Positions 13,331 through 64,000 of a stretch of DNA of 64,000 bases are shown piece after piece. Where the stretch lies: contig OZ260661.1 in assembly GCA_965285935.1 (NCBI GenBank), positions 60,512,001 through 60,576,000 on the forward strand. Direction: 5' to 3'. Position 1 is the stretch's first letter. Each line of letters starts with the position of its first letter. The notes under the pieces were generated by a model. The model made no database searches and had not been told where the DNA came from. It was given only the letters and a program-made list of their open reading frames with translations. The stretch comes from Ophelia neglecta. Lineage: Eukaryota. Position numbers and translations under genes: made by a program.

Positions 13331-14890
13331 TTGTTGAGGAAGAAAGTTGGACTTGTGACTTTGAAATCAAACTACAGTTGTGGACATTTTACCAGTTTGT
13401 GACAATATTTTTAGCTGACATTTTTTACTTTCTTTTAGCGGTGCCTGAATTATTTGGCAAACCCCAAGTGGAATTCGGACGGCCACTGGTAAAAATAAAA
13501 TGTGTGTATGGTCTTCCTGGACGACATAGATAGACTCGACCTGGTTAGTTGCTTAAAATGGAAGTGGGAAAATATGTATTCACTCGGGGACGCAGAAAGA
13601 AGGAAGTACGCACATATTATATTGATAAAACAAACACTGTAGAATATATCTTGATAAATTTCCGAAGCAGAACAATCGTATTGCATTGTATGTCCGTCAT
13701 GTATGGCAAATTTAGTATAGAATACATGTGATCATATAGCAGTTTTCATTTGGGCTTCATGTCACACAAGTCGGGTGACTTTAGGTGATGTTGCCGACTG
13801 ACTGAGGATGCAGAGGAAACAGTCGACAATCAGGGGCCAGTTTTTCAAGAGCTCCTTGAAGGTCGGGGTTCAAAGCCATTACATCTGGTAGATGTTAACA
13901 GGTAAATGCGATCAGATGTCGACTTCCACCTTCAGACAAGATCCGCCCTGGGTAAACTTATCAAAGACTGTTGCCTCCGGATTGGGGACCTCAGCCGGAA
14001 TCACATTGTCAAAACTCATGATAAATGTTGTCGCCAGCCCACATAACAAGACTGCCTGCACTTTTCCCCAATTAGCCCAAGTTGGCTTTCAGTATGCCGA
14101 TTTCATTTCGCTGGGCTCGCAAAGAGGATGTTCGACTCTTTGGCTAAGTTGAGTTAAAATGGCCCCTTATAGATCCCTGCCTCCTCCAGCCCAGACTATG
14201 TTTGCTCTTATTTATCGTCTGCTTCCAGCCAAGCCTCAGAAGATTGAGTTGAAAGACGTCTATTGCCTTTTAATTTGTACAAATTGATGAATTTGGCACT
14301 GCCATCATCAGTCAAATAAACGTTAGCCCTTCATTGGACGCCAGACAAGGATATTTCAGTTTTCATACAAATGTAGGTAAACATCGTCTATATAGGTACT
14401 TACTGGCAAATACCCGTGTCCCCTATATCCTCCATACACTACACTTATAAATATGGACATGTACTTATTTTGAAGACACTGAGAAGACCTCCGCTGAAAA
14501 TCGAGAATCCTGTCTGTGAGAAATTTGAAAACCTGCCAAATTACCCTCTCTACATACCAAAATGATTACCGAAAGATTAGGCAAATTGAACAATTGCATG
14601 AGGCAAATTAACAAAGAAGTAAAACCGTGTAACCGACTTACAAACAATGCCAATGATAGGTTAATCACTTTTGGTACCGAGCTTTTGAGTTCACGTCTTG
14701 TTTGTGAATAGACGCTTAATATCATAGCTTTCAGGGGCTGGTGGTATTGAGCAATTCGTTAGTCATAAAATTAATAATCACTCACTTGACGGAACGCAAT
14801 ACTTAGTTTCATAAGTAGAAACATAGTAATTTGTGTTAAAAACTATGCAGAATGTTGTTAATTCATAAAATTATTAGATTGTCTAACATT

Positions 14891-14899
14891 TACCCTGTA
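14891..14899 (-). promoter_or_regulatory. miR-10-family 8mer target site in the putative Hox1 3'UTR
   Basis: mRNA-sense TACAGGGTA is complementary to miR-10 nt 1-9 (UACCCUGUA), about 365 nt after the stop codon. Confidence 0.55.
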
Positions 14900-34824: not shown

Positions 34825-36048
34825 TTTATTACAATAAATTAATCCACAGTTAAGAACATAATAATTATGAAAATACACAAGTTCTCCCTGGACACAATAA
34901 TTATGTACACTCTTTGATATGTATACAGGAACACATACACATAAGACGAACAAATGACAAGTATTTCACAATTCACTACTATTTAAAGTGAAATATTTAG
35001 ATGTGCTTTCCAGATTGCAAATAAATAATCAAGTCGAAAAGACCATACTGGAATATTCCATCCTGCTTCAGTGATATTAACAGGTCGTCTGCTCGGTCGC
35101 CAGCAGGTGCAAGAGAAATGTATTGTACTAAACACGCAAGAAGTTTCAGCGCAGGCCTACCTTTTGTTTCAATCGATAGAGGGCACATGTCAACACATAC
35201 TACTTCGGTGTCGGCCATCAAACTCCGCATGAGAGAGGCGCATGCAACTCAAAATGTGCCAGTGGTTAAAATATGATCATTTGCCATTGATGCAGTTTAG
35301 CTTTGTTGGCACTTCTAGTAGGTAATGGTGATAATCATTTTACTTGCATTGTACCATACATTATAATCCGGCTCCTTGAATAAACATACATGTAGTGCAA
35401 GTTACAACCATTTCATGACCAAATATGCATATTAAGGCTACAAAAACCAGTCTTAAAATGTGTCATGCTGTTTATTTTGACAATAAGCCTCGTGCATTAA
35501 CAACGTATGTGCTTATTATGTTTATGCCTATAATAAAATACAAAAAATGAAACTTGAAGTCTATTTGTTGAGATAAATGTTTCAATCATACATACAATTG
35601 ATGTCAGTAAAATTTCAGGAACAGTTGTACCTCTAGCTGCACACACCAAAATTAAGAGTGGGGGAGATTATACAGCTAAAAAATCACTTTTACCGGGCGG
35701 CAAAGATAGTGCATTAAGTTAACATGATATCACATGGTGCATTTGACCTCCAGACCACGTACAACAATGCATTTATTGGAAATAGCCATTTCCATCTAAG
35801 ATTTATCTACTTGTCACACACAAATTATAACATTATTGGATTTTATATGAAATATTAGAATATTCAATATCACTCTCCACTCGAGCCCCAATTTACCCTG
35901 CTTTTGAATAATAAAAAGTGTATTCGTTGATGGTTAAATGCATGAATAAATTATATCAATTGGAATATATATTTAACCTGGTTTGTTTGCTGTGTTTACA
36001 TACACTGGCCAATCATTTTGAGAATAATTTACATTTTTTTGCTTTATG
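34825..36048 (-). other. Putative Hox2 3'UTR with candidate poly(A) signals
   Basis: AT-rich; AATAAA on the minus strand at 35772-35777, 35471-35476 and 34825-34830. The true end is not determinable from sequence. Confidence 0.45.
35894..35900 (-). promoter_or_regulatory. miR-10-family 7mer-A1 site in the putative Hox2 3'UTR
   Basis: mRNA-sense CAGGGTA about 150 nt after the stop, upstream of the first AATAAA I found (35772-35777). Confidence 0.4.
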
Positions 36049-38177
36049 TTATATAGACATGGTGTAATATTCGGCATTTTCTTGAAGATCGCTAGCAAAA
36101 TTACCGAAGTCAGCATTCATTAGATCTGTGGCGCTCATATTACTGAAGTCTGGCATGTTGAAAGTCGAGCAATAGTCCATAGAGTGGCTCTCTGTGTAGT
36201 CGACATTTGTGTTAGCGGTCACTGAGGCTGTATTTAAAGCGGCATTGGTCTGAAAATGTTCACTTCTATGTTGGTCCTCAGCCCCGATCCTGTTGACCGG
36301 ATCAGAAGGGGAGTTGTCAGGATAAAAGGCCCCGTTCACATGTCCAATACTGTATTGACCATTGCTGTCACTGTAGCTATTGATGGAATTAGCCGGCCCG
36401 CTCATTGAAATCTGTGGATAGTTACCCGTAGTTTGGTTATGGTCGTAACCCTGTTGAATTTCAGAGCGTTCTATAGCGGTGTCCCCCTGGCCCCCAGCAG
36501 GTTGGGGGTAGGCCCCTGGGTCAGGGACCATTGCCGGGTACCCCCGAGATTGAAGAGCATGGCCTGCCATTCCACGTTGCTGCTGGCCGTGGGGGTACGA
36601 CATATTGTGGGCATTTGCAATTTGAAACCCAGAACCTCTAGAATTGGTTTGCGAATATTGCCTTGGCATCTGGTTTTGTTGTGCTTGATGTTGATGTGGG
36701 TAGTAGCGATTGTTTACATACTGAGCTAGAGCGGCGGAGTCAGCCACGTAGCCATGTGTATCATTTTGACCAGGATATTGATGCTGGTACATTGGGTGAT
36801 TGGTCTGCACTTCGTTACCATGGCTACCAGCCATTGGGTCCTGCGGCAAGCTATTGACCATGTCCATACTGACATTGATGCCATTTCGTGCTGCGCTAGT
36901 GTTTCTCATCATGGGCGGTGGGCCAGTGTCGTCTGCTCGAATAAAGTTATGTGCTCCGCTAGATGGCGATGTCAGAGGCAAATTTCGAGTAGGCAGCGAG
37001 TGCCTGAAGTTTGCCTGATGTTTTACCGTGGTATTTGACTGAGCATACTCAGTCGGTCCCTGGAGAGGTGCGTGTTGAGGGTTGTATGTGTCAAACTCAC
37101 GACGAAAGCCGTTCGTAGGTTGGTAGCCCATTGGAGGCGGGACATTAGCGTGCATCATTTGCCCGTGAGTGAAGCCAGGGTATCTGTTGGTACCCATTGC
37201 TCCCTGGCCCACAGCGACATTGGGAGGGGGGATCCGACCAGATGTGAGCCCTGGGGAGGAATGACTGGGGGCCGTCGAAGCCTGAAGGGCCTGGGGAGAT
37301 TTTTGCTGGGGCTGTGGAAAAGGTTGCTGAGAGGAGGCTTTAGAATGCATGGGACTTTTAGTTGGTTTCTGCCCATCACATTTACCCATGTCTACAATCT
37401 CTGATTCACCAGCTGCTTTGATCTCTAACGAAGCTTCTGTTCTTCCTTCATTGTTCTTTGTGTTCCCTGATTGAGATTTATTGTTGTTCTCTGAATCAAC
37501 CGTTGAGTCAGCGTTAGCTTTTACTTGGCAGGCATTTCCTTCGGGAGTAAAGTCTCTTTTGTCTGAGACGGCCCCGTCCGAGTCGGTGTAATTCACCGGT
37601 TCCGACTTAACACAGTCTCTTTCATTTAGTTCTGTACTCCCCGACGTTGAATTATTTGTGCCAGTATTGAACGACTCTGTTGACATACGGGAGTCCTCCT
37701 CGGATTTATTTGATTCCGATGGCTCTGAGATAGCCGCCACGCTGGCTGTGTTCTCACCTGCCGAGTCCTCCTGGTATTTATCCAGGGGGTCTGCCATGTC
37801 CCCGAGGGGACTCTTACTGTCCTCCCCTCCGGGGTGTGTACTGCTGTCCACCGCCGGGGAGGGGGAGGCAATGCTGCCCTCTCCCTCCTCCCCTGAGCCC
37901 ATGCCAACACCGCCCCTCTCTTCCTCTCCCTTGTTGCTCGTCTGCCTCTTATACTTCATCCGCCTGTTCTGGAACCATACTTTCACCTGTCTCTCCGTCA
38001 GATCCAGCGAGGCAGCTATCTCTATTCTCCGGGGCCGGCAGAGGTATTTGTTAAAGTGGAATTCTTTCTCCAATTCTAGCAGCTGAGTATTTGTGTAGGC
38101 AGTTCGCAGTCGCCGGGGATGGCTCGAGCCGCTGCCGCTGCCACCGCCATCCGTTGTCGACTGTCCCTCGGGGAAAT
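36049..38177 (-). CDS. Hox2: Hox2/proboscipedia, coding exon 2 (homeobox 38118-37939 plus long C-terminal tail)
   Basis: Pyrimidine tract plus TAG|AT acceptor (AG at 38179-38178). Homeodomain [60 protein letters not shown] is PG2. Frame open to TAA at 36051-36049. Spliced CDS 2454 nt = 817 aa. Confidence 0.98.
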
Positions 38178-41100
38178 CTAGAGGAAGGCAGAGAGAAGAA
38201 AAAGGAACAAAAATTAAATTTCAATTAGTCAGTTGAAAGGCGATCGGCAATCGAGCGAGCCGAGGAATTTAGCTGTAATTGAGCTTCCCTGACCCTAACT
38301 AGTTGTGGGTATTCCAGCCTAGGAATCGGTTCCCCGAAACGCGGCGACTCGGGGTTTCACCTCGCGTCTAAGACAATAGAAAGAGACAGGTAATTATCTG
38401 TAGATCACGAAACCGACTGAAAGCGGCCGTGTTCGCATGATTGCAAACTAACTCAGGGACAGGCTGGCCACACGAGAGTCGACTGATGTTTGTACTGTGC
38501 CTTCGTGCTCCAATCTCAACACAAGCGCTGCATTTGAATTGAAGAGGCCAGGGAAGCTCAGAACAACGTCTTATACTTATGAATACAACATGCATATTAA
38601 CTTGATAAACGACAAAGAGTCTTATACGGTATCTAAACACTGTTATAAATAATAAATATTCTATCATCTAGGTTAATAGCATTATCCCAAATCACAGACA
38701 CATATATAGGCATTATTTACAGCCCAGCAGTTCCCCGAAATAGGCTTATTCTAATGGATAGTTCTCTAGGCCCACTAGAGGACAAAGACTAAGTTAGAAA
38801 CGCTGCCATCAAGTAGAGAAGAAACTAAGAAGGAGATAGATTCTCACATCGTAAATCTCTTTTTCACAGCCAGGAATTATGGGGTTTGGAGACAAGCATA
38901 AGACGGTTTAAGACCACAGAACAGCCGTGCAGTTTCCTCGAGTCACAAAACAAATTACATTACAACACCACAATCATGGTTCATTGGCAAACGCCTTGGG
39001 AGATTTATGGTTCTAAAGGAAGAAATTGAAAAATAACTAAAACGAATTAGGGATATGTCTCAGGGTGGGCTTTGTGCATTGGGACTGTCCAGATGGTCCG
39101 GCCGGGTTTTAAGGCCTTGTGATTCCCAACTCAGCCTGGAAACCGACCCGAAGACAGGTACTGAGCAGACGACAGGACACATTTCAAATTTGATGTCAGT
39201 CGCTTGTTGTGGTAGCCAAGACCGGGGTTTAGGAGGCACGCTGTTGCCTTCATCATTTGCCTCAAACAGCTTTCGATCTTTGCAGAAATTGACAGAGAAA
39301 GATAGTAAAGGGTGGGTTGAAAATGCTTTGTCGAGTTGTAATCAGGCCATGGGGGACTTGGGTCGAAATCCCCCTAGTAAGGTGGGATTATAGAAAGGAT
39401 TAAGACCTGAAAGCAGTTCGCTTGTTGTGCCCTTGTAAGATCTTAGGTCGAACTCCGGACGATAACAGCAGGGTTTTTTTCCCTGGTAGAACATTTTATT
39501 GTGTATTTCCCTCGTCCTTTAGGACTGTCTTATTCTCATGAGAGAAGACAACATAATTGAGACTTCTTTCGAGTTATTATTATAGAAGCTCGAGCTGGCA
39601 AGCATGACATGTGAAGGATTAGTAAAATGCATATTTGCCTTCGCTTTTACAAACACTTTGTCCTTCCTAATGCAGGCTCTTAAGTTTGAAAATGCACCAA
39701 CCGAGTATTAGCTTCTAAAGGCAACAATGACAAAAACGCCATGAGTAGGGTATCTGACAGCCCCGTCTAGACCTACATGCAATTCTAGAAATAACTCTTT
39801 TAGGGTCGTGTTGACATTTTCTGGAACATTCTATGTCTTTACTCTTAATTAAAGCAGGCCTAGCTACGTAGGCCTCTGTCATTGCAATTTTTCCTAGGTC
39901 TTGTTTCAGCAATTACAAGATAAAGCAGACATGTGTTTATGTATACTAACATATACATGTACCTAATCCAATATGGTTCCATGTGCGGAAAGATTGTCAA
40001 GTGAACTAACCAAATTAAGGTAAGGGAATTACACGAGAAAACTTCCCTGCCTGCGAAAATGTTTTGATTTACAGTGAACAGTGTATTGACATCTCTATAT
40101 ATTATATGTATATGTTTGTGGATAGGGAAAATGTCCCCCCCCCCCCCCCCGTGCTTTGAACAATATTCTTTCCATTCAAATATCTGGCCGTGTATCTTTT
40201 ATCTTACCCTTAAGTCTGTAAGTACTTGTTGTTTTGTTTATAAAAGGAAACCCCGGGCTTACATATCTATTATCAGCGTTTGATATCATCTATGTAGTAA
40301 GTGTTGGATGCTGTTCGGTCAGAGAATCTTTATGTATCGGCACATGACTCCGGTTTTTCAATGAAGTTGGGATAAGCAAACAGGTCTACAATTTAACACT
40401 AATTAATTGTCTCTTAATTATTCTTGAGAATTCGTTTTATTGTATTCTTGTCAAAAGTATACTATAAATGTTAAAATGTTTACAAGACACTGCTTTGGAA
40501 TTAAGAATAGCAAGCAATTAACTGGAATGATCCAGCTTGCAGAAGGTTTTTACTATTCTCAAGGAAAATCGCTCACGACTTTGAGCCCCCCCCCCCTCAG
40601 GAAAATGCTCTGGGTAAATTAAGGTTAAGGTAGCACTTGTATCTCACCTTCACAGCATTTCATATAAGTTAGTGAAAAAATAACCTGGTGACCCTTTTGT
40701 ATGGGGAATTCGGAAGAGGAACCAAGCACTAAGGCTATCACGGTGGGAGGGAGGATCCTGAGGCAAAATACTTTTGACCCCCCCCCCCTCATTTCCACCT
40801 TGAAACATTGTGTACCCCCACCCATTTTCTTTGCCACCCCACCAAACCCCCCCACCCTCTGATATTAATAATGAACACTCCCCAAACGGTCCTGGGTTGA
40901 AGCCAAAGTGTAAGCATATGTCCTATTTGTCGAATCTCACATCATGTAAGCTGGGTAGAATAAAATAACATTGGTGAAGTGTATGGTGCTGTTTATTCAA
41001 TAATTCATCGTCCCATTTTTATAGCCACAATTAGTCAAAAAGTCCATTCCTTATTGCTGGCTCCATATGTTTGTTGATTTGATATATACTGTATATATAA

Positions 41101-57175: not shown

Positions 57176-60140
57176 TTTATTGAAACATATTTCATATTTA
57201 CAGCAACAATATAAAGCTAATATTTTACTTTAGGATGGAATGAGAACATAAATGCTTATTGCTTTTTTCAGTAAATAATTATAAATAATATTTAATGATG
57301 CTGATGGAGAGCGTACATTTTTATTGATAGCCGATGTTTTAGCATTAATCCCGGTATAATCAAGTGTTCAGGATCGTTGTAATAATGATAGTTCTACGTT
57401 GAAATAGGATATTTATTATTTTGTTGTAGGGGTATATATTTTTATATTCAAATAAATGTCATACCCGTTAGTATATATATATATGGTATGGGGATATCAT
57501 TAAAATAAAACTTTCGATTGTATCATATTATTTAAACATACTATATATATATTTATATATATATGTGTGTTTAGTATGTATTTTAATCAAACTTTTAGAG
57601 TATTCAAATTGCTTTTTTTAAATTGTACGTGGTTTAAGGAATAAATTTTAATTACTTAAGGTTTGTTTTTGTTTACTTTTACAGTGTAAATGAAATAAGT
57701 TGTCTTTTTAAACACAAGTAAATTACATCATAGAGATAACAACAAGAAATCATTTTGTTGGTCTAATATTTAATACTACAAAACACACATTGTACATGGA
57801 TACAGCCGTTAATCTTATTGTGATTTTAGGACAAATATGAAATCTCAACTTTCAATATCCGACGCCGTCTTTAAATAAAATACTAATCTCCTTTTGGTGT
57901 ATCACTTTCCAAGAAAAATGGTGGATTTCTAATATCCGCGCCACTTGTATTACTATGTCGTCTGCTACCCTAATAATATATCTACAATAAAGCTCATTCT
58001 AATTGACATTTTCAAAATATAATATACATATATTATTTACATGATATTTTACTCTCAACATGTTTACAGTTAATTTCAAAGTTCACAATGAACTATCAAC
58101 TCCATTCCACTAGTATGTGACCAATAATTAAAATCTTGTACGCAAAATGCCTTCAATGCAATATATCATTAACACCTAGAAATACATTTCTTAACATCAG
58201 ACTGCGAGAGATCTGAGTGCTGCGAAAAATATCTAGAATTTCCATCTAAACTTTACATTATTGCTGGCAAGAATATGGCAGCTGAATTGTTTGTCTCCGC
58301 ACCGAGTAAGGTGAAACATATTACTAAATATATACTATTACAAATTCAGGTATGCTTCAAGTTTTGCGCCTAAAACAGACGTTTAAAATTGTCCATTGTT
58401 CATATTCTGCGCATACTTGAAGCGACTTGAAATGGTAAGTTAAGATAAACGATATAGTGTACCCGTAAAATCCCGTTTAGCAACAATATTTATAAAATGT
58501 ATACTCTGAAATGTTCCGACTATTTTACTCTTACAACAAACACACAGTGGACACTAGAAAAATTAAGTAAGGAGTGCACATACATTTTTGAACTAATACA
58601 AACTCATGACAATGCCACGTGAACTATTGTTATTTCTTTACAAATTTCATCCAAATACTATCTGCTAATGCACAGGTTTTAGCAAGATTGGGTCCAGTAA
58701 GTTAAAAGAGAATCTTCATAAAAGTTGACCCTCTCTGGACGGCTGGCAAAAGAACAAAGAAAAACATTATAAAGAACAAAACCACAGGTGAATAAAGTAA
58801 TAAAACTACGATCAAACATATGGAGAAGGCATTACTGAGTGACCCCTAGCAACCTGCTATTGGAAGTCAAATTCCAAGCACAGCTAAGCTAGTTACAGGA
58901 GGCACTATAGGGCCATATAAAGTTCTTAACTGTATCTATTTGCATATTTTCAATTGGAAATCACTGCACCGTAATTTTGCATTGGTCTGTCATAGTGGAC
59001 GATTTCTGAATAAGACAGTTTTATGACCCTTGGTTAAAAGTTTTTCTTCACACCTGCAAGCCTGCCAAGATTAAACGGTGAAAGCGGCTGAATGGGCCAC
59101 CTGAAGACCGCGGTGCTAATAAAGAAGGCAAGTTCAAGAGACCTTTATAGTTTCTGGTACTGCCTATAGGCACTTATTGGCTCCTGCTGCGGTGAATACA
59201 CAATGGCAGGCAGTGGTCAGTAGCTATAAAGTTAAAATGACGAGCTTTCTTTTCAACTAGCACTCAAGTAGGCACCTCGCACGGGCCCCTATGTAGTTAT
59301 CTTAATTATATCTGGCTTGCAATTCGCAACTAGTTAATAGGTGTATACTAAGGGAACCAGCGATACAATTGTAATACTTTGTTAGAATACCATATTGCAC
59401 CTGTCAAGATGGAGCTTGAAGTTTACACATAAAACAATGCTAATATTCTAAGTTGTATTTAACACAAAAAGGGCAAGAAATGCAGGTATCATTGGATTTA
59501 AAAATCAGATCTATAAACCGGCAGTAAAATAAATTTACTGACAATTAACACGGAGTAGCATTTAACAGACGCCATTTAACACAATATTCTCATAACAATT
59601 AATCACTACACTAAGCAGCGAATTAGCCAGGGTTAATAAAGTGGGCTCCCATTGAAATTCCAGCTTATCAAAATACAACTTTTCAGAAGTTAAATATCAG
59701 AATAATCTCTCAATATTTTCCTTTTTGTCTTTCAGTTGTATCACCATGTTATATTTTTCAGTTGTTCTTCCAACTGCCTCTTTTAATAAATATTTCAAAT
59801 TTTGATATTTTTCACCATTTTCTCAAGTTTTGTCGACCCTGTATAAGGCATCTCAAATTATACATTGAGATAGCAGAAGAAAACAGAAACAGCTCGTTAC
59901 TACAGACCATCTCACTTCGTAGGCATCGAGCTGCTATAACAACATAGGCCTATCACTTAGCCCGCCACCACGGACAACGAATTAAGTACACACAATATGA
60001 TATATCATAGCACTATCAAATCAGCACACTTTTAAACAATTATGCCCATTCTATATTTTAGAAAATCCCTGCTGCATTTAATGTATATTGCGCCGGCGCT
60101 TGCGCAGATGTTGTACTGAAATCTGCCGCCAATGAACTTC
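57176..60140 (-). other. Putative long (about 3 kb) Hox3 3'UTR
   Basis: AT-rich tract with Pumilio-type TGTANATA motifs (57195, 57979, 58034) and miRNA seeds. Cluster of minus-strand AATAAA near 57176-57420. Confidence 0.4.
59836..59912 (-). promoter_or_regulatory. miRNA target module in the putative Hox3 3'UTR (miR-10/993-5p seed, miR-124 seed, miR-993-3p-like extended site)
   Basis: Plus strand ACCCTGTA 59836-59843, TAAGGCA 59844-59850 and AGCTCGTTACTACAGACCATCT 59891-59912. Confidence 0.5.
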
Positions 60141-60937
60141 TCATAAATGGGTTAGTTTTGGCGCAGGATTGTAGTTTCCCTGAGTATAATTCATTTTGTC
60201 CATTGAACACAAGTTGATATTGGGCGGTAGATGTAAGGGAAGAGACATCCCTTGACCGTTGATGTAATGTTGAGGGTTGGGTGAAGGGGTGTGGGGGTTG
60301 TGACACCCCATAGGAGATCCCGTTCTACCGTAATCGAGCGGGCTGGCACTCGCTTGGTGGCGCTGTAAGTGAAGGGGTGAGTTGCCCTCTAATGGTGACA
60401 TCTTGTGTGACATATTGGGTGGCGACTGACCCATATTTGGAGATTGCAGTTCTGATGACGTAGAAGAGGTGTGGTGGGGATAATTGGGTCGTTGGGCGCC
60501 ATATCCGCTATCACCATGGCCTGATGACGCATGATGACCCTGAACCCCACCGGATGTGGACAGAGGTGACGTCACCGGCGACGCTAGTGATGATTGGTCA
60601 TCCTCCGAGGAGGTGGAGCCATTACCGGATGTGGCGCTCGACGACCCTTTAATGCTATCCACTGATTGGTCAGTCAGCTGCCTCGTCACATCCCCACCCA
60701 TTTGCTTCTCTAACAACTGCTTCTGTTTCTGATCCTTCTTATATCTCATCCTCCGGTTTTGGAACCAAATTTTGATCTGTCTCTCGGTGAGATTGAGAAC
60801 TGCCGCCATTTCAATTCGGCGCGGACGACAAAGGTAACGGTTAAAGTGAAACTCTTTTTCTAGTTCCACAAGTTGAGCGCTGGTATAAGCTGTTCTCGCC
60901 CGCTTTGACGGCTGCTGGTTTGACTCGGCGTAGCCAT
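60141..60937 (-). CDS. Hox3: Hox3, coding exon 2 (homeobox 60908-60729)
   Basis: Acceptor TTTTCAG|AT (AG at 60939-60938). Homeodomain [60 protein letters not shown] and the C-terminal APKLTHL* motif are both diagnostic of PG3. Confidence 0.98.
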
Positions 60938-63781: not shown

Positions 63782-64000
63782 CTGGCGAAGATGACAGTTG
63801 TCTCTGTTTGCCATTTTGACGGTTCTCCCTCATCCACGGGAAGATCTCCTGGGGAGGTTTCATATCAGGTGGTGGCTGAGAGGCATGTGGCTGGGAATTG
63901 TGTTGCTGGGCCCCGGGGGCTGGGCCTGGGCCCTGGGGCTGTACGATGATCGGACCCATACCTGGATTGTTTTCCATACAAGAGGTGGGTGGGTAAGGGT
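63782..64000 (-). CDS. Hox3: Hox3, coding exon 1 (5'-partial; runs off the window)
   Basis: Frame is open to the window edge (..PYPPTSCMENNPG..), so the Met at 63977 is probably internal. Hexapeptide EIFPWMRE. Consensus donor CCAG|GTAAGT, intron starting at 63781, phase 1. Confidence 0.93.

Follow-up and report, generated by a model that had tools for sequence, protein, structure and literature searches.

Is the messenger RNA (mRNA) of Hox3 in the likely annelid Ophelia neglecta controlled by microRNAs that lie beside it in the Hox cluster? The question is raised by a 64,000-nt stretch of the genome (contig OZ260661.1, here C1; C1:60512001-60576000, the window), which carries Hox1, Hox2 and the greater part of Hox3, each encoded by the minus strand. 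Between 230 and 305 nt 3′ of the Hox3 stop lie two short segments, site A and site B (together the module), in which the original prediction had seen complements to the two arms of mir-993, a microRNA of the miR-10 family. The reading that we favor, with moderate confidence and from sequence comparison, is that Hox3 mRNA is likely repressed by 5p microRNAs of the miR-10 family encoded in the cluster, via one canonical site (site A, window positions 59836-59843), and that site B is probably a weak or chance match. Site A is accompanied by an excess of miR-10-family seed matches behind other Hox stops, strongest for the posterior, Post2-side microRNA.

Site A and the miR-10-family loci

The plus-strand letters ACCCTGTA stand at 59836-59843, as predicted. 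Read as mRNA, they form a Watson-Crick match to nt 2-9 of the species' own mir-10, mir-993 and P7 5p arms and pair with nt 1-8 of P4-2 (names after Platynereis, see below); for a 993-5p starting 1 nt later the site is also a 7mer-m8. Because position 1 is C, site A is a 7mer-m8 and not an 8mer. Since its seed is common to four of the six miR-10-family hairpins in the cluster, it is not specific to mir-993, and it could be read equally by mir-10 and two more paralogues that in Platynereis yield mainly their 5p arm. P4-2-5p was the strongest binder among ten arms tried (-21.6, equaled by 5 of 150 shuffles), only a hint that it is the best partner.

Ten Hox homeoboxes, each on the minus strand, were found in 712 kb of contiguous genome; from cluster order and homeodomain signatures we take them to be Hox1-5, Lox5, Antp, Lox4, Lox2 and Post2. 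A search with Rfam models placed mir-993 between Hox3 and Hox4 (C1:60625019-60625096, + strand), as the original prediction had it, antisense to the Hox genes and 49 kb past the window end; mir-10 lies between Hox4 and Hox5, mir-100 and let-7 lie on C7, and mir-125 and mir-124 are likewise present in the genome. The location of mir-993 between Hox3 and Hox4 agrees with published work (PMC4862073; papers are cited throughout for what excerpts of them state). Pattern and hairpin scans of the 712 kb gave six family hairpins (C1 positions 60625027+, 60666308+, 60686056-, 60781459-, 60893939- and 61102379-), which by sequence, order and strand correspond to Platynereis P4-1 (mir-993), P4-2, P1, P7, P5 and P6 (PMC12257675), an agreement that points to an annelid. 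In Platynereis P1, P7 and P4-2 have a common seed, ACCCUGU, while P5 starts 1 nt and P6 2 nt earlier, and P4-1 gives both arms (3p 2643 reads, 5p 1249), its 5p starting 1 nt later (PMC12257675). These small-RNA ends serve as a proxy for the 5′ ends in O. neglecta, and because the starts are staggered the paralogues would read different words.

The P6-type hairpin (C1:61102379, minus strand, -39.1 kcal/mol) lies 22 kb past the Post2 homeobox, at the posterior end of the cluster. Its number is uncertain, because P6 is called lost in the main text of PMC12257675 yet listed in its supplement. In oyster, limpet and Capitella, miR-1991 adjoins Post2 (PMC4138081), and from position we infer that P6 is miR-1991. 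The hairpin at C1:60666308 (+ strand, -43 kcal/mol), which is like Platynereis Mir-10-P4-2, lies 2.7 kb upstream of the Hox4 hexapeptide and on the other strand from it. The supplement of PMC12257675 gives the Mir-10-P4-2 locus as specific to P. dumerilii, but it may be older, since a similar hairpin is found here. The antisense strand of mir-993 yields a very abundant microRNA in Platynereis (251,577 reads; PMC12257675), and its seed showed no excess behind the Hox genes over controls. A second mir-993 with a 3p arm nearer to site B was sought, and its two pattern matches proved to be the antisense of P7-5p and a place without a microRNA-like hairpin. Outside the cluster, three more words resembling a 5p arm (L039-L041) gave unconvincing hairpins when folded and were excluded. 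On the immediate 5′ side of the mir-125 hairpin, the opening letters of miR-125-5p are present in two copies 45 nt from each other (L032, 3838-3890).

That the module is part of the Hox3 3′ untranslated region (UTR) is inferred, because AATAAA is absent within 2 kb of the stop and ATTAAA occurs at +59 and +354, with site A, at +298, between the two. The three sequencing runs covered the intron without joints and behaved like DNA of one sample. A repeat origin of the module was ruled out, the 200-nt stretch around it being single-copy in the genome. The miR-124 match said to abut site A is there, fitting nt 1-7 of the species' own miR-124, and miR-124 sites are not enriched behind the Hox genes (1 vs 2.1 expected). 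As microRNA sites less than 8 nt apart compete (PMC4532895), only competition with site A would be possible for it.

Seed matches behind the ten Hox stops

Sense-strand sites of 7mer or better were counted 3′ of the ten Hox stops and, as controls, of 42 other homeobox genes, among them a likely Post1 and three ParaHox genes. For the ancestral seed, that of site A, the ten 1.1-kb Hox flanks hold 8 sites against 0.93 expected, spread over five of the ten genes, and 1 on the antisense strand. Each of six flank lengths between 0.5 and 3 kb shows the excess (P 0.009 to 6e-6), and in 2-kb flanks there are 8 sites behind the ten Hox genes and 8 behind the 42 controls (P 0.0055). The 8-letter word of site A itself occurs behind Hox1, Hox3 and Lox5 (3 vs 0.15 expected, the discovery site counted) and in none of the 42 control 1.1-kb flanks. 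By comparison, miR-124, miR-100, miR-125, let-7, 993-3p in two registers and 993-5p with the late start gave no excess in the Hox flanks over controls (P 0.08-0.9).

The strongest signal found belongs to P6. AGGGTAA, the 7mer-m8 of the P6-type seed UUACCCU, ranks first of all seeds and is the top 6- and 7-mer behind the Hox stops. Sites of 7mer or better for this seed number 28 in the ten 2-kb flanks vs 2.6 expected and 2 on the antisense strand; the 42 control 2-kb flanks hold 11 vs 11.0 expected (Hox vs controls, P 1.6e-12). Hox5 has 11 of these sites, Lox2 7, Antp 6, Hox1 2, and Hox2 and Lox4 1 each (the densest flanks follow stops at C1 60724893 for Hox5, 60784555 for Antp and 61054130 for Lox2), while the 2-kb flanks of Hox3, Hox4, Lox5 and Post2 have none, and those of Hox4 and Post2 are without any 5p site. 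Enrichment peaks at nt 2-7; of 32 cores, 20 have an A facing nt 8 (P 1.5e-5) and 19 an A at position 1 (P 0.01). No signal of 3′-supplementary pairing was seen at nt 13-16. The contexts of the sites are unrelated to one another and not repeats, and 300 Markov simulations yielded at most 7 sites.

Another word, TGTATA, which we take to be a Pumilio-like motif, is also enriched on the sense strand of the ten 2-kb Hox flanks (37 vs 12 expected). Its strand bias is weaker behind the control genes (64 sense and 50 antisense, vs 37 and 17 behind the Hox genes), and some control flanks are probably introns.

Staggered starts would let the family divide the Hox messages. The Post2-side copy (P6, miR-1991 type) would address Hox5, Lox2, Antp, Hox1, Hox2 and Lox4, whereas Hox3 and Lox5 carry one site each in the ancestral register only, which mir-10, P7, P4-2 and the 993 5p arm would read. 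Wherever the more posterior microRNA loci are expressed, Argonaute loaded with these RNAs would damp the messages of anterior and central Hox genes. Taken by itself, the P6 part of this scheme seems to us more likely than not. A fuller version, in which the six staggered miR-10 copies share out the Hox mRNAs by seed register, P6 acts as the worm's miR-196, and Hox3 and Lox5, which are without P6 sites, are read by both 993 arms via a paired module (whose 3p site, in Hox3, is tuned by the stem and by a one-letter polymorphism), strikes us as improbable.

A number of observations weigh against repression of Hox3 through site A and against a general cluster-wide pattern. Hox3 carries a single ancestral-seed site; its hybrid energies are equaled by 19 of 150 shuffles for mir-10, 40-78 of 150 for 993-5p and 89 of 150 for P7, and it is predicted to be poorly accessible (unpaired probability 0.011 vs a median of 0.039). 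The ancestral-seed excess is partly borrowed, because six of its eight sites double as P6 or P5 sites, the remaining two being those behind Hox3 and Lox5, and without Hox5 it falls to 4 vs 0.83 (P 0.01). The P6 word could also be mimicked by the motif of an RNA-binding protein. A lone site in zebrafish HoxA3a gave no response (PMC2148072), and strongly predicted Hox sites in the fly had no major embryonic effect (PMC3290615). Conservation was gauged in 80 metagenome Hox loci, which look distant and many of which have short flanks; 59 were counted, 6 lacked a usable homeodomain or stop, and another 15 were set aside, namely 1 with a short flank, 1 that is Xlox-like and 13 Hox3-like genes (among L154-L170) in which, unlike in this Hox3, an intron apparently follows directly after the homeobox. 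The seven usable Hox3-like flanks, up to 1.5 kb long, hold no ancestral-seed site of 7mer or better, no miR-124 site and no match like site B; in local alignments one of the seven (L161) beat 100 shuffles, through an A-rich stretch and not the sites. In the 22 distinct Hox5-like flanks, 5 sites fit the ancestral seed and 2 the P6-type seed, with 1 antisense site for each. From these counts the Hox3 module is not deeply conserved, nor is the dense P6 pattern general, in this sample.

Table 1. Features of the window, with positions counted from its first letter.
Feature	Position	Strand	Remarks
Hox1 3′ flank, P6-type site	14540..14547	-	7mer-m8 for P6-type seed
Hox1 3′ flank, site for all 5p registers	14889..14899	-	8mer for P6, P5 and P1 seeds; P6-type site at 14889-14896
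Hox2 3′ flank, P6-type site	35892..35899	-	8mer for P6-type seed; P5 and P1 seeds fit too
ATTAAA at +354	59782..59787	-	candidate polyadenylation signal, 50 nt behind site A
Site A	59836..59843	-	mRNA UACAGGGU; 7mer-m8 (plus nt 9) for 5p seed ACCCUGU; +298 to +305
miR-124 match	59844..59850	-	7mer-A1, directly abutting site A
Predicted stem-loop holding site B	59888..59935	-	-16.8 kcal/mol on the mRNA strand
Site B	59889..59912	-	pairs better with miR-100-3p (nt 3-10 and 12-15) than with the species' miR-993-3p (nt 3-7 and 12-17; seed mismatch)
ATTAAA at +59	60077..60082	-	candidate proximal polyadenylation signal; if used, all sites fall outside the mRNA
Hox3 last coding exon	60141..60937	-	homeodomain; stop codon 60141-60143; open reading frame, splice acceptor; presumed name, from homeodomain and cluster order
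Hox3 preceding exon	63782..64000	-	FPWM hexapeptide; ends at 63782, continues past the window edge

The last exon of Hox2 is long (window 36049-38220), with 626 residues after the homeodomain. A further homeodomain, at C1:92574661 on the + strand, 31 Mb away from the Hox cluster, resembles what we take to be Post1.

Site B and the rival readings

The second segment has the predicted letters at 59891-59912. Its pairing with 993-3p had been given as nt 3-9, nt 12-17 and the last four, with a mismatch at nt 2; the mismatch and the pairs at nt 3-7 and 12-17 stand, but nt 8-9 and the last four are unpaired in register, because the prediction relied on an insect sequence and this species' 993-3p differs mid-arm. 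With the species' own arm, nt 18-19 form G:U pairs and nt 2 and 8-11 are mismatched. The hybrid (-16.2 kcal/mol) is in the top 1.4% of 4905 window tiles, and it does not surpass shuffled sequence, 21 and 38 of 150 shuffled 360-nt flanks equaling it. A 3′-compensatory site requires extensive 3′ pairing centered on nt 13-16, with about nine contiguous pairs. Site B has the single seed mismatch of such sites (five of six pairs at nt 2-7, nt 8 being unpaired too) and falls short on 3′ pairing, with six Watson-Crick pairs (12-17) and two G:U. Site B is probably a weak or chance match. The local stem predicted around it is borne out by folding (z -3.2 on the + strand, -2.3 on the mRNA strand), only 1.1% of 1072 GC-matched 53-mers folding equally well, and it covers the seed side of site B (predicted unpaired 0.013). 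In one of the three DNA-like runs (X3) a single letter is deleted at 59890, a position on the border of site B and of the stem; if the C is the deleted letter, pairing at nt 2-7 would be complete, at the cost of one pair in the stem.

One rival reading, built on the original prediction, has both arms of mir-993 acting on Hox3, the 5p arm of the antisense locus at site A and the 3p arm at a compensatory, stem-gated site B, with a second such pair behind Lox5. Its 5p half survives as a likely target of the family though not of mir-993 specifically, while the 3p site lacks a seed match, and as a whole we consider the proposal improbable. The exact in-register pattern of nt 3-7 plus 12-17 is indeed rare, with 174 occurrences when both strands of the 762 Mb are counted; apart from site B, the 712-kb cluster has it just in mir-993 itself and on the strand opposite P7-5p. 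Yet by local match 3206 places in 1.42 Mb score equally, and when 17 arms are considered, the probability of such a layout is P 0.077 for a 360-nt flank and P 0.91 behind ten Hox genes. Among 30 looser 993-3p compensatory-like places, a class defined after the fact, a 5p 7-mer lies within 200 nt on the corresponding side only behind Hox3 and Lox5 (2 pairs vs 0.23 expected in ten 1.1-kb flanks, P 0.023, the discovery site counted). The Platynereis locus is abundant in both arms (2643 and 1249 reads, as above), with a 5p start whose seed fits site A, and the possible loss of C in one run would make nt 2-7 fully paired. Against this stand the mismatched positions, which are nt 8-11 and nt 2 (counted from the Platynereis start, nt 3), contiguous Watson-Crick pairs numbering only six, the shuffled flanks that reach -16.2 kcal/mol, the seed side predicted to be closed in the stem, and the lack of any site B-like match in the seven other Hox3-like flanks. 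The 993-3p seed shows no excess behind Hox genes either (1 or 3, in two registers, vs about 1.6). Furthermore, 3′-compensatory sites make up less than 1% of effective sites (PMC4532895), and 5p and 3p targets of miR-10-family hairpins in the fly overlap no more than by chance (PMC3049427). Behind Lox5 (C1:60750091-60750246, +905 to +1060) a compensatory-like 993-3p match is followed 130 nt later by a site identical to site A, and an AATAAA at +42 may place this pair outside the mRNA. The top 993-3p compensatory-like match of the cluster lies at C1:60865272 +, about 10 kb behind the Lox4 stop and on the Hox-sense strand (-25.8 kcal/mol).

That the module is instead a decayed copy of a miR-10-family precursor, recycled as a target, is very unlikely, and we reject it for want of a covariance-model match, for its wrong spacing and weak duplex, and for an alignment within the range of controls. 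The original prediction called the copy inverted; with mir-993 on the + strand, the module is in the precursor's own orientation, the same on the + strand as the two antisense paralogues. Gapped alignment did best with P7 on the mRNA strand (score 28.5), where it covers both segments. In that comparison 1 of 67 anchored controls equals the score, but as the best of 16 comparisons (eight precursors, two strands) it is equaled by 12 of 67 control seed anchors, and among themselves six of eight real paralogues score 37-49, the other two 31 and 26.5. Rfam mir-10 (RF00104) finds no match in the window at gathering score, nor in 59500-60200 at E up to 10. The arms lie 54 nt apart, compared with 35-43 nt in real precursors, and pair poorly with each other, as the prediction itself had remarked (-7.8/-8.4 kcal/mol vs -17.7 to -24.2 for eight real precursors). 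No single parent explains this single-copy module, because its first segment fits the mir-10/993 type and its second miR-100-3p or P7. Site B as a target of the miR-100-3p star strand is the least credible proposal. The hybrid is strong (-22.8 kcal/mol, nt 3-10 and 12-20 with three G:U, equaled by 1 of 150 shuffles and at 9 places in 1.42 Mb), but nt 2 is mismatched, miR-100-3p is the best of ten arms tried, three other same-strand places in the window are as good or better, one of them 60 nt off, and in Platynereis the star has 0 reads vs 61,860 (PMC12257675). An absence of regulation, with both segments chance words or the Hox3 mRNA ending at the +59 signal so that the stretch lies outside the transcript, is unlikely but deserves more weight than any of these. 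By itself, meeting one such 7-mer within 360 nt would be a modest coincidence, since 1.42 Mb contain 120 matches of 7mer or better to the ancestral seed; the missing AATAAA, the low predicted accessibility of site A and the lack of conservation at the seven distant Hox3-like loci fit it as well. What speaks for repression of Hox3 via site A is that the excess of family sites 3′ of Hox stops is confined to one strand and not seen for the 42 control genes, that site A stands 50 nt ahead of the second ATTAAA, and that Hox3 paralogues are established miR-10 targets (PMC2148072).

Comparison with known systems

Taken alone, the Hox3 site is ordinary, a likely annelid counterpart of the miR-10/Hox3 link known in vertebrates. 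It is outweighed by the pattern across the cluster, which bears on the repeated origin of microRNAs at the same places in Hox clusters and on the role of the extra miR-10 copies of annelids. The tenfold, strand- and register-specific excess for the posterior copy gives named targets (Hox5, Antp and Lox2) and makes testable the question of a lophotrochozoan miR-196-like brake made from a start-shifted miR-10. In the literature covered, which included few subscription papers, no report of Hox target sites for lophotrochozoan miR-10 paralogues was found.

In zebrafish, miR-10 represses HoxB3a and HoxB1a, and the sites are conserved in vertebrate HoxB3 (PMC2148072). The arrangement in O. neglecta is like that of zebrafish miR-10 and HoxB3a in having a seed match 3′ of Hox3, the microRNA between Hox4 and Hox5, sites in Hox1 and none in Hox4. 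Unlike vertebrate HoxB3, which has at least two sites, Hox3 here has one, predicted from its letters, in an invertebrate with six family copies per cluster. The annelid Mir-10 set (P1, P4-1, P4-2, P5, P6 and P7) comprises the same six loci in the same order and on the same strands, and arm and seed shifts have been described for it (PMC12257675). Site B is like the 3′-compensatory type of let-7 and lin-41 (PMC4532895) in its seed mismatch and in pairing that resumes at about nt 13-16, but unlike it in having six Watson-Crick pairs and two G:U, an unpaired nt 8 and an energy not above shuffles. The closest parallels to P6 are vertebrate miR-196 and arthropod miR-iab-4/8, which act on the mRNAs of more anterior Hox genes (PMC3394115) and are likewise microRNAs of the posterior end with many seed sites behind the Hox genes 3′ of them; P6 has none behind Post2. 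Unlike miR-196 and iab-4, the predicted regulator P6 is a start-shifted duplicate of miR-10 and not an unrelated microRNA.

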